From a virus (taxonomy: Duplodnaviria; Caudoviricetes), in IMG/VR virus record IMGVR_UViG_3300034157_000065, positions 64,001-128,000 of that record: DNA of 64,000 nucleotides. One strand, written 5' to 3'. The translations under genes and the position numbers were made by a program. The notes under the pieces were generated by a model that ran no database searches, was not told where the DNA came from, and saw only the letters and a program-made list of their open reading frames with translations. Below are positions 5,514 through 64,000 of the stretch, in pieces (within the stretch, counting starts at the first letter, position 1; every line of letters begins with the position of its first letter).

Positions 5514-6125
5514 ATGACCACTGAAACCGAATACCCTTTGATTGAAAACCTTGAACTTGTTAAACGCAAGAAGTTCGAAACACCAGAACAACGTCTTCAT
5601 GCTATTATTACCGTTCTTGATGAGGAAGCATCTTCTCGTTGGGTAGAACGGGATTCTGACGAAGCTGTTCCGGTTGAAATGCGTCGTCAGTCTAATTACC
5701 GTTGGGATGTGGCTAGTTGCGTATTCAAGGATGATGACATTCTGCACATGATGCGAGTTAAAGAATTGACCAACACTGTCACTCAAAGTCACTTGCTGTG
5801 TGTGTCTTTACCCGAAATCTTTTACGATATGGCTGCCAACTTGCTTTACCTTTCTTATGCAAAGGACAGTGGCAGTCAGTTAACCGCAGAAGAAAATAAT
5901 GAAATCATCAAAACTATTTTTGGTGAGCAATTTTCTCGCTTGGATCAAGCTTTTCATGAATGGTTGATTGAGCATGTTCCAAAAATGTTGGTGGTGCATC
6001 CCGCTTGGACGAATACTGACCCAGTTAAATATACTGCAAGTCAAGTTCAGCATTATCGCACAACTTACGAAGGTTCTTTTTTTATGCCTCATATTGAAGA
6101 AGCAATTCAAAATGTTACAGGTTAA
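5514..6125 (+). CDS. hypothetical protein
   Basis: upstream TGGTATAAT, AAGGT RBS. Confidence 0.8.
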   Translation: MTTETEYPLIENLELVKRKKFETPEQRLHAIITVLDEEASSRWVERDSDEAVPVEMRRQSNYRWDVASCVFKDDDILHMMRVKELTNTVTQSHLLCVSLPEIFYDMAANLLYLSYAKDSGSQLTAEENNEIIKTIFGEQFSRLDQAFHEWLIEHVPKMLVVHPAWTNTDPVKYTASQVQHYRTTYEGSFFMPHIEEAIQNVTG

Positions 6126-26260: not shown

Positions 26261-27346
26261 ATGTCTACGTTTAAAGCGACCGTTCTTCCAGTCATTGTTG
26301 AGCCACATCCTAACGCTGATGCGATTGAACTGGCTCGCGTCGGGGATTTCTTCTCGATCATCCAAAAAGGATACCTGAAAACAGGTGATTTGGCTGTTTA
26401 TATTCCAGAAGGTGCTCTTGTTCCTGATTTCATTCAAGAAGAAGTAGGTTGCCTTGGTAAATTGGCAGGTTCCAAGAAAAACCGTTTGAAGCCTTCCATG
26501 CTTCGTGGCATTCTCAGTCAAGGTCTTTGCTTCAAAGCCCGTGATGGCTGGGCTATTGGTGACGATAAAGCCGAAGAATTGGGTATCATCAAGTATGAAG
26601 CTCCTATTCCAGCTTCCATGAATGGTGAGATTTCTAACGTGGGTATTGAAAACACTTTCCACTTTGACATTGAAAACGTCAAGCGTTACCCTGATGTGTT
26701 GGTTGATGGTGAGCTTGTCTCCATGACTGAAAAACTTCATGGTACTTTCACTGTTGCTGGTAGCGTTTATGGCAAAGACCCTATTCCACATGTGGTTGAT
26801 GGTCGCTCATTCGTGAGTAGCAAAGGTTTCTTCAACAAAGGTTTGGTGCTTCGTGATAACGATCAAAATGCTCATAACATTTACATTCGTGTTGCTAAAA
26901 AGTTCAATCTTTACGAAATTACAGCTATCCTTGCAGATCGCTACAAAACTAATGCTTACATTTCAGGTGAGACATTCGGTGCTGTTCAAGATTTGACGTA
27001 TGGTTTGGACAATGGTGTGTTTGATTTCCGTGTGTTCAACGTCTTTCTTGGTTCCCGCACAGAAGCCAGTGGTGTGTTCCCTGTTAATGATGATGAACTT
27101 GAAGCCTTGTTGACTGAGTTCAACTTGAAGCGTGTTCCTGTGCTTTACAAGGGGCCATTCAGCAAAGAAGTCATGTTGCAATACACTGATGGCTTGGAAA
27201 CTTATTCGGGCAAGGAAACACACATTCGTGAGGGTGTTGTGATTGAACCACTTGTTCAACGTCGAGATTCTACTATTGGACGTGTTGTATTGAAAAGTGT
27301 TTCGACAGCTTACCTTTCTCGTAAAGGTGGAACAGAACTAAACTGA
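26261..27346 (+). CDS. RNA ligase, DRB0094-type (N-terminal OB-like module + Rnl2-type nucleotidyltransferase)
   Basis: HPNADAIELA N-terminus, TEKLHGT motif I, GETFG, REGVVI, LKSVS..YL. Confidence 0.9.
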   Translation: MSTFKATVLPVIVEPHPNADAIELARVGDFFSIIQKGYLKTGDLAVYIPEGALVPDFIQEEVGCLGKLAGSKKNRLKPSMLRGILSQGLCFKARDGWAIGDDKAEELGIIKYEAPIPASMNGEISNVGIENTFHFDIENVKRYPDVLVDGELVSMTEKLHGTFTVAGSVYGKDPIPHVVDGRSFVSSKGFFNKGLVLRDNDQNAHNIYIRVAKKFNLYEITAILADRYKTNAYISGETFGAVQDLTYGLDNGVFDFRVFNVFLGSRTEASGVFPVNDDELEALLTEFNLKRVPVLYKGPFSKEVMLQYTDGLETYSGKETHIREGVVIEPLVQRRDSTIGRVVLKSVSTAYLSRKGGTELN

Positions 27347-55948: not shown

Positions 55949-55985
55949 TTGTTGACTTTCAATGGCTCTTTTGTTAATATGGAAC

Positions 55986-56081
55986 CACTAGGTAGAGATG
56001 ACGATGCAATCGCCTCACAGCAAGGTTAGATCATCTTTAGGTTCAGCGGCGATTGGCGGGGTTCGAGTCCCCGATCTAGTG
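55986..56081 (+). ncRNA. tRNA-mimic ncRNA (acceptor stem + T-arm, no D-stem or anticodon loop)
   Basis: CACTAGGT/ATCTAGTG stem, CGGGG-TTCGAGT-CCCCG T-arm, CAATCGCC/GGCGATTG helix; TTGACT-17-TAATAT promoter; terminator 56084-56112. Confidence 0.65.
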
Positions 56082-56122
56082 TGAGGCTTACGATTGTGTA
56101 AGCCTTTTTTTTGGAGAAAATT

Positions 56123-63819: not shown

Positions 63820-64000
63820 TTGAATAAGGCTGAAAGGTTTGCTAGAATGGCTACATTGAATGAGACGACAGCTTCAAAGTCACTCAGGATTGTAACGCGG
63901 GTGTGTGAGTATAATAGGAGAGTTGGCCTTCCGTCCTTTGAAATATAAGGTTGCTCTACCGTTAAGGCGTGAGTGCCTTGCTACATCGGTAACGTAGGTT
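63820..64000 (+). ncRNA. promoter plus start of a probable stable RNA transcript (truncated by window edge)
   Basis: TTGAAT-17-TAGAAT, leader shared with tRNA-Cys locus, GC-richer hairpins, no ORF. Confidence 0.4.

Follow-up and report, generated by a model that had tools for sequence, protein, structure and literature searches.

In the tRNA-like domain of transfer-messenger RNA (tmRNA), the D-loop is single-stranded and 10-13 nucleotides (nt) long, and the base of helix 2a carries conserved GA/GAC elements (PMC1168896). An RNA of mycobacteriophage DS6A (tmID 11587) has been described as little more than this domain (PMC4131195, PMC11915505). Here, a tRNA-like RNA gene of another phage is compared with these systems. 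It lies at positions 55987-56081 of a 64,000-nt stretch, hereafter the window, which covers positions 64,001 to 128,000 of the IMG/VR virus record IMGVR_UViG_3300034157_000065. This record (G000) is 192.8 kilobases (kb) long and is estimated to be 59% complete. Judged from its sequence, the locus is the gene for a stable non-coding RNA of about 95 nt, and this RNA belongs to a previously undescribed family; the large uncultivated phages that carry it have one copy per genome.

The gene is on the plus strand, as are all of its parts, and runs for 95 nt from acceptor position 1 to the discriminator G56081. It scores 51.7 bits (E 1e-14) with R1, the covariance model that defines the family by a 7-base-pair (bp) acceptor stem, a 5-bp T-arm, the helix AAUCGCC/GGCGAUU, the motifs UYNCAGNAAGG and GG..AGC, and a pseudoknot between linker and loop. 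All of these motifs and pairings are present in the window copy. A sigma-70-type promoter at 55952-55980 consists of the -35 hexamer TTGACT (55952-55957), a 17-nt spacer and the extended -10 element TGtTAATAT (55973-55980), in which the hexamer TAATAT occupies 55975-55980 with TG upstream. An earlier note on this DNA had pointed out the same promoter (TTGACT at 55952, TAATAT at 55975), and a promoter scan recovered it. The predicted transcription start, about A55987, is acceptor position 1. An intrinsic terminator, also seen in the earlier note, lies at 56083-56112 and is composed of a 10-bp hairpin (56083-56106) and a T-run.

The fold is an acceptor/T-arm minihelix (7 + 5 bp) joined to a compact body with a double pseudoknot, formed by helices a and c. 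The 5' strand of the acceptor stem, ACUAGGU (55987-55993), pairs with 56074-56080; the stem includes the wobble G55992.U56075 and has U-A at 3:70. Its 3' strand AUCUAGU together with the discriminator G56081 occupies 56074-56081, and UGA, not CCA, follows. The T-arm (56057-56073) is directly stacked on the acceptor stem and has a 5-bp stem, CGGGG/CCCCG, and the canonical 7-nt T-loop UUCGAGU; it had been read correctly before as CGGGG-TTCGAGT-CCCCG. The place of the D-arm is taken by a segment of 13-14 nt, and there is no D-arm, no encoded CCA and no 7-nt anticodon loop, again in agreement with the first reading. Since the RNA has no anticodon, it cannot decode.

The D-arm replacement carries the 5' strand of helix a, AGAGAUGA (55994-56001), which pairs with the 3' strand UCAUCUUU (56031-56038), a strand of lineage-specific complementarity. 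The complementarity of AGAGATGA (55994-56001) to TCATCTTT (56031-56038) had been suggested as a possible pseudoknot, and covariation among the relatives confirms it. The 5' strand of helix c, GAU (56003-56005), pairs with GUU (56025-56027) through G56003.U56027, A56004-U56026 and U56005.G56025, and this helix continues helix a across a 3-nt bulge (56028-56030). Helix b pairs AAUCGCC (56008-56014) with GGCGAUU (56048-56054) and is followed by the 2-nt joint GG (56055-56056). The 8-bp helix 56007-56014/56048-56055 that had been described as closing a 33-nt loop is present, but its eighth pair, C56007-G56055, is seen only in the closest relatives of the window. Directly 3' of the first strand of helix b is the loop motif UCACAGCAAGG (56015-56025), with the family consensus U-Y-N-C-A-G-N-A-A-G-G. 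The conserved loop AGGUUCAGC (56039-56047), with the family consensus GG-N-U-N-A-G-C, runs into the second strand of helix b, and its GG may stand in for G18 and G19 of the D-loop. The minimum-free-energy fold gives the same nested helices (-44.6 kcal/mol, z = -2.8). No dedicated antisense partner of the RNA was found in the same genome.

The family was collected by a motif scan of IMG/VR with the pattern AATCGCC-N25-45-GGCGATT-N2-10-GTTCGANNC. The scan gave 16 stretches, almost every one on a contig of 113-462 kb, and 15 of them have the architecture of the window RNA; the exception, L015, is a chance match. The same pattern in Joint Genome Institute (JGI) metagenomes added six lineages, and a transition-tolerant pattern added one more, L272. 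About 18 lineages of large phages, all uncultivated, share the architecture. Members score 48-103 bits with R1, while true tRNAs score 33 bits or less, and exactly one copy was found in each of 13 phage records, including that of the window. These carriers are distant from each other: their large terminases are 21-40% identical, with one barely alignable, and the GC content of the locus ranges from 30% to 65%. The RNA itself is 93-104 nt long. In two near-identical phage contigs it differs solely at positions 59 and 60 of the T-loop, which are variable ones, and the flanking genes have drifted. Low-GC members have their own conserved promoter, whose position predicts a transcript beginning at acceptor position 1; it reads TTGACT-17-TGnTATTAT, at the same distance to the acceptor stem, in L016, L020 and L008, and the terminator stem in L016 and L020 has a matched insertion on both strands. 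The maintenance of one copy per genome in phages with barely alignable terminases points to a conserved interaction with a universal component of the host machinery for translation or RNA handling.

Comparisons by blastn of the locus, of the complete element and of its centre with 50,697 GenBank phage records gave no counterpart of the central part; the matches were to the T-arm and acceptor only, from tRNA-Ala, tRNA-His and the 3' ends of tmRNAs. One match, in Enterococcus phages, carries the annotation ssrA and proves to be an ordinary tmRNA of 348 nt. Of the matches in a motif scan that covered one genome for each prokaryotic species, the 120 listed all failed the structural filter, so that absence from cells is provisional. 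Rfam 15, at gathering and at permissive thresholds (E up to 10), gave only a weak T-arm match to mascRNA; no Rfam 15 family claims the window RNA, which is the outcome of a check that the earlier note had named. No paper describing the family was found in the literature.

The structure was assessed in a model-based alignment (A4) of 19 sequences and with anchor-based scripts; MAFFT alone (A1) misaligned the 5' end. In the 19 aligned sequences, 98.3% of stem cells pair, and the value for the acceptor stem is 99%. Changes on both sides were observed in all seven acceptor pairs and in four of the five T-stem pairs. None of 500 shuffles reached the observed covariation value, and pairing fell to about 40% when the partner strand was slid out of register. 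In helix a, each lineage pairs with a strand of its own, as in AGAUGA/UCAUCU, UCUUGC/GCAAGA, CCCUC/GAGGG, AUCUGU/ACAGAU and CUUCCAG/CUGGAAG. The mean duplex energy is -10.1 kcal/mol for cognate strands against -4.2 kcal/mol for non-cognate strands (permutation p < 5e-5), and in 14 of 16 lineages the best-ranked partner is the cognate one. These comparisons show that pseudoknot helix a is real. Helix c shows the covarying sets GAU/GUU, GCU/GGC, ACU/GGU, GGU/GCC and GAU/GUC, with L210 swapping U.G for G-C; 38 of its 48 cells pair (p < 5e-5).

Collecting homologues, the second check proposed earlier, has therefore yielded relatives in which the acceptor stem, the T-stem, helix a and helix c covary. 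The central claim of the earlier note, a discrete RNA gene with tRNA-mimic architecture, is borne out. Its closing stem of 8 bp (55986-55993/56074-56081) needs a correction. The stem is there, but the family stem has 7 bp, and C55986-G56081 corresponds to -1:73. Here U(-1)/A73 is the usual combination, with a mismatch in L012, L184 and L210; the outermost pair is not a family feature.

The covariation bears on two other explanations of the locus. A pseudogene left by the decay of a tRNA or tmRNA, or the functionless remnant of an integration site, would fit with the fact that no tRNA finder or Rfam family recognises the RNA. The element is, however, single-copy, compensatory changes preserve its four helices, its motifs are invariant across very distant phages, and its dedicated promoter and terminator are conserved, so that decay is hardly credible. 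It is also conceivable that the RNA is a miniature tmRNA whose 33-nt loop encodes a short tag, such as ASQQG* from GCC at 56012 or the ARLDHL* frame from GCA at 56020. ARAGORN does read a tag, ASQKGQCWVTA*, in the L014 copy, and in most copies the GCC frame runs into a stop inside the loop. The frames are nevertheless 2-19 codons long, with C-termini that are neither conserved nor tag-like; the variation falls on first codon positions, and much of the open reading frame is paired in helices a and c, where it covaries as RNA. A conserved reading frame was sought in all three phases of the loop and none was found. Because no frame is conserved and much of the stretch is paired, there is no mRNA-like domain, and tag-encoding of this kind is very improbable.

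In contrast to the other stems, helix b does not vary. AAUCGCC/GGCGAUU is identical in every member found, including all 19 aligned sequences. Scans that did not fix helix b and scans that tolerated transitions revealed no variants of it; members differing in both helix b and the loop motifs would escape these scans. UYNCAGNAAGG, GG..AGC and a G two bases before helix b are nearly invariant across the family. With the other stems drifting freely, so constant a helix b and such constant loop motifs suggest that the constraint is either sequence-specific recognition or tertiary contacts.

Such invariance can also be read in another way. The RNA may be a subunit or scaffold for a conserved partner, either a phage protein or a host factor outside ribosome rescue, with helix b and the loops as the binding site and the tRNA-like end serving for processing or stability. 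The strict conservation of helix b and the loop motifs across phages with terminases of 21-40% identity, in which the other stems drift, and the single copy per genome are both in its favour. No conserved neighbour gene of the element was seen, however. The ten neighbouring proteins in the window, examined with Pfam and PHROGs, are orphans except one protease-like and one methyltransferase-like protein, and elsewhere the element is flanked by tRNAs; in most carrier phages it is inside a tRNA array. In addition, the G3:U70 pair kept in ten lineages is hard to explain by a mere processing handle. A scaffold of this type is possible but doubtful.

G3:U70 is the identity element for alanyl-tRNA synthetase (AlaRS), which does not need the anticodon, and this is why tmRNA can be charged. 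In the family, the pair is observed in ten lineages (L012, L014, L017, L019, L184, L210, L231, L247, L260 and L272), all of which start with GGG except L247 (GAG). A73 is present in all of them but L017, and CCA is encoded right after the discriminator in six (L017, L184, L231, L247, L260 and L272). G.U is the commonest pair at 3:70, found in 9 of the 19 aligned sequences, with L272 as the tenth lineage, and it is rare at other acceptor positions. Tool output on some of the relatives agrees with these marks. ARAGORN labels the L014 copy a 149-nt "tmRNA"; the tRNA model of Rfam gives the same copy 23.9 bits (threshold 29), with a 36-nt insertion in the "anticodon loop". The tmRNA model of Rfam gives 27.8 and 24.2 bits to two copies (threshold 47). 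Because G3:U70 and A73, with CCA in six lineages, occur in much of the family, the family is an anticodon-less mimic of alanine tRNA, on the logic also seen in the tRNA-like domain of tmRNA and in the DS6A RNA.

The window copy is on another branch. It ends with U3-A70, G73 and UGA, and G3:U70 is missing also in its close relatives L007, L016 and L020 and in L008, L151, L011, L010, L009 and L013. The absence of CCA is not a habit of these genomes: CCA is encoded in all canonical tRNAs of G000 (3/3), L008 (5/5), L011 (16/16), L151 (2/2) and L016 (1/1), while the elements of the same five have neither CCA nor G3:U70. Acceptor sequences of this branch show no common identity pattern, and their pairing is always kept. 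We infer that the branch of the window gave up charging and kept the fold.

The two branches are relevant to the idea that the RNA is a charged carrier for ribosome rescue without a tag. After 3' trimming, CCA addition and aminoacylation (with alanine in the lineages with G3:U70), it would be delivered by EF-Tu to the empty A site of a stalled ribosome and, like tmRNA, would accept the nascent chain, though with no tag template, freeing the ribosome without a mark for degradation. The G3:U70 pair in ten lineages, accompanied by A73 in nine and by an encoded CCA in six, and the location of members in tRNA arrays agree with this idea. tmRNAs devoid of a coding sequence have been reported in mitochondria of jakobids and in some plastids (PMC11915505), and two phages have the element next to a full tmRNA in their genomes, as would be expected if the two RNAs complemented each other. 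Difficult to accommodate are the window copy and some six further lineages, which have no G3:U70 or CCA although neighbouring tRNAs encode CCA. The D-loop elements of tmRNA that are tied to SmpB are absent from the RNA, which would have to pass the decoding centre without SmpB. A charged, tag-less carrier is accordingly not very likely.

The explanation that we favour, and hold tentatively, is that the window RNA, a tRNA mimic without an anticodon, works by attaching to factors of translation or ribosome rescue; both the partner and the effect are deduced. The window copy would work uncharged, by binding alone. It belongs to the branch without G3:U70 and CCA and has its own promoter, with transcription predicted to start at acceptor position 1, and these features suggest the uncharged action. 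It would occupy a factor that recognises the elbow and the acceptor arm of tRNA; candidates are SmpB and the ribosome-rescue machinery, EF-Tu and tRNA-processing enzymes. Occupation of such a factor would change how the infected cell rescues ribosomes or handles tRNAs.

Several observations weigh against this explanation. The linker is paired and has no GA/GAC consensus of tmRNA, in contrast to the tRNA-like domain described before (PMC1168896), and for this reason SmpB may not bind in the known way. No SmpB gene was found in the 13 carrier records, so any partner would be a host protein. Two carriers, G010 and G009, also encode full-size tmRNAs (G010:C1:195183-195591 and G009:C1:25395-25745; L268 and L269; 95.9 and 88.1 bits with Rfam), which fits poorly with a simple role in blocking trans-translation. 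In G010, the tmRNA and the element share one tRNA island, with 1.4 kb between them. The invariance of helix b could reflect a different partner, and the CCA-adding enzyme of the host could add CCA to the window copy, which might then be charged by some synthetase.

A bolder version, which we consider rather improbable, is that the family consists of self-sufficient RNAs for SmpB-independent ribosome rescue or ribosome hijacking. Helix b and the double pseudoknot would sit where a tRNA has its anticodon arm or a tmRNA has SmpB, the anticodon-less and often alanine-charged RNA would enter empty A sites during infection, and the uncharged branch would be a competitive regulator.

The role of a tRNA mimic in conflict over host tRNAs was also considered. 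The RNA may be a decoy that distracts a host defence enzyme that cleaves or modifies tRNA, or it may be a substrate that is cut and resealed by RNA ligases of the phage. Large phages carry tRNAs that counter tRNA-targeting defences. G000 encodes two proteins with the RNA_ligase domain PF09414 (window 26717-27298 on the plus strand, and G000:C1:18494-18967), and at least one PF09414 protein is encoded in 10 of the 12 other carriers. This co-occurrence is non-specific, as ligases are common in large phages, and G006, which is 90% complete, shows none. The anticodon loop that known anticodon nucleases need is absent from the RNA, and the conserved loop resembles no particular tRNA anticodon arm. 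Neither a CCA-adding enzyme nor RtcB was found in G000, at its estimated completeness of 59%. A decoy or repair substrate is improbable, and the suggestion in the earlier note that the RNA is a substrate for the encoded ligases has nothing behind it beyond the non-specific co-occurrence.

Other unusual tRNA-like genes were observed in the window and in the carriers. At 714-782 of the window (plus strand), there is a 69-nt tRNA-like gene with its own promoter (TTGTCA-17-TATAAT) and the acceptor stem CUGCCGC/GCGGUGG. It has G3.U70, A73, encoded CCA and a CUA anticodon loop, which would read amber codons; it is unseen by ARAGORN and Rfam and scores only 12.2 bits with R1. Another amber reader is the "tRNA-Pyl(cta)" called by ARAGORN in L008. 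From 63903 to the end of the window at 64000 and beyond (G000:C1:127903-128021; L004:903-1021), there is a tRNA-like RNA of about 118 nt with the acceptor stem GCGGGUG/CAUCUGC and G3.U70. It has A73, CCA and a T-arm of canonical form, while a cloverleaf is missing. The tmRNA model gives it 18.6 bits, and it is a second, different alanine-type mimic in the phage of the window. The tRNA-like sequence CGGUGAA...UUCACCG-G-CCA at G000:C1:128160-128234 (L004) has an anticodon-arm loop of 6 or 8 nt, not 7, and is not called by ARAGORN.

In other carriers, L011 has at 5738-5816 (minus strand), adjoining tRNA-Ala, a 79-nt RNA that consists only of a tRNA-like domain in the style of DS6A. It has the acceptor stem GGGUGCG/CGCAUCC, G3.U70, A73, CCA and a plain CCCGC/GCGGG hairpin, and scores 32.9 bits with R1 and 26.6 bits with the tmRNA model. 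L011 carries this RNA with G3.U70 while its pseudoknotted element has no G3:U70. L014:6211-6266 (minus strand), about 180 nt downstream of the element, is a 56-nt miniature tRNA-like sequence with the acceptor stem GGGCCUA/UGGGCCC and a T-arm but no anticodon arm (R1 28.7 bits). A fragment-like open reading frame of 302 amino acids that matches the AlaRS core (PF01411) lies at G001:C1:108848-109156 in a 437-kb carrier; it is the only such match among the 13 records.

Although giant phages are rich in genes for translation, the annotation of their tRNA islands relies on tRNA and tmRNA finders alone, and these miss the RNA of this family. In a survey of huge phages, tmRNAs were assigned with ARAGORN, and tRNA-like RNAs are not mentioned (PMC7162821). 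A covariance model of the family would improve the annotation of phage genomes. The presence of forms with and without the alanine marks and CCA is a built-in experiment that contrasts charging with mere binding.

Among known RNAs, canonical tRNA (RF00005) shares with the family the geometry of acceptor and T-arm, the T-loop UUCGANN, the location in arrays and, in some members, CCA. The family differs in having no D-arm and no 7-nt anticodon loop. The window RNA is not a canonical tRNA: the site has no ARAGORN call and no hit of the tRNA model, and the only two tRNAs called by ARAGORN in the window are ordinary and elsewhere. It is not a tRNA-Sec or allo-tRNA (8/5, 8/4 or 9/3) either, because the eighth acceptor pair is -1:73, CCA, in the members that encode it, follows a 7-bp stem and a discriminator, and there is no anticodon arm. 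In YrlA, the ends of the RNA form a Ro-binding stem opposite the tRNA-like module. YrlA and the window RNA both mimic the elbow and T-arm of tRNA, but the ends of the window RNA form an acceptor stem instead. The likeness to YrlA drawn in the earlier note did not hold, as the RNA has no YrlA features and no Rfam match to it at E up to 10.

The comparison with the tRNA-like domain of tmRNA (RF00023) fared better. Both have a 7-bp acceptor stem and a 5-bp T-arm, and in both a helix joins the T-stem through 2-3 nt. The segment between acceptor and helix is 12-15 nt in the family, compared with 10-13 nt in tmRNA (PMC1168896). Alanine identity is shared by the tmRNA domain and many relatives of the window copy. 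By analogy, a G.A pair of the type found at the base of helix 2a might be formed by the invariant G before helix b and the GA that most lineages have after the helix. The family has no mRNA-like domain, no PK1-PK4 and no D-loop consensus of the UUCGAC type, and the tmRNA model of Rfam gave no hit on the window copy (gathering threshold 47 bits). The tmRNA-like layout claimed in the earlier note is therefore apt for the family, with its G3:U70 lineages and sub-threshold scores, and less so for the window copy, which has no alanine marks or CCA and in which the region of the D-loop is paired without the consensus. For the same reasons, membership of the window RNA in the tmRNA tRNA-like-domain family was rejected.

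The DS6A RNA was located at JN698994 28478-28557 and is among the best non-members with R1 (31.5 bits). A tmRNA-tagging reporter assay has been applied to a DS6A-like RNA of this kind (Mao et al. 2009, cited in PMC4131195). RNAs of the DS6A type and the family are alike in being small and stand-alone: the acceptor stem stacks on a T-arm of canonical form, a helix replaces the anticodon arm and there is no tag frame, and many members of the family have the alanine identity marks as well. DS6A has a single-stranded D-loop of the tmRNA type (..GGUCGAC) and a plain hairpin, whereas in the family that strand is engaged in the double pseudoknot. The family also has the invariant helix AAUCGCC/GGCGAUU and loop motifs of its own, and the window copy differs further in having neither G3:U70 nor CCA. 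The family extends the single published phage tmRNA that consists of a tRNA-like domain only to a structurally different class. The kind of RNA, a phage-encoded, anticodon-less, alanine-type tRNA mimic, was already known from DS6A; what is new is the deeply conserved double pseudoknot with an invariant helix, split into forms that look chargeable and forms that do not.

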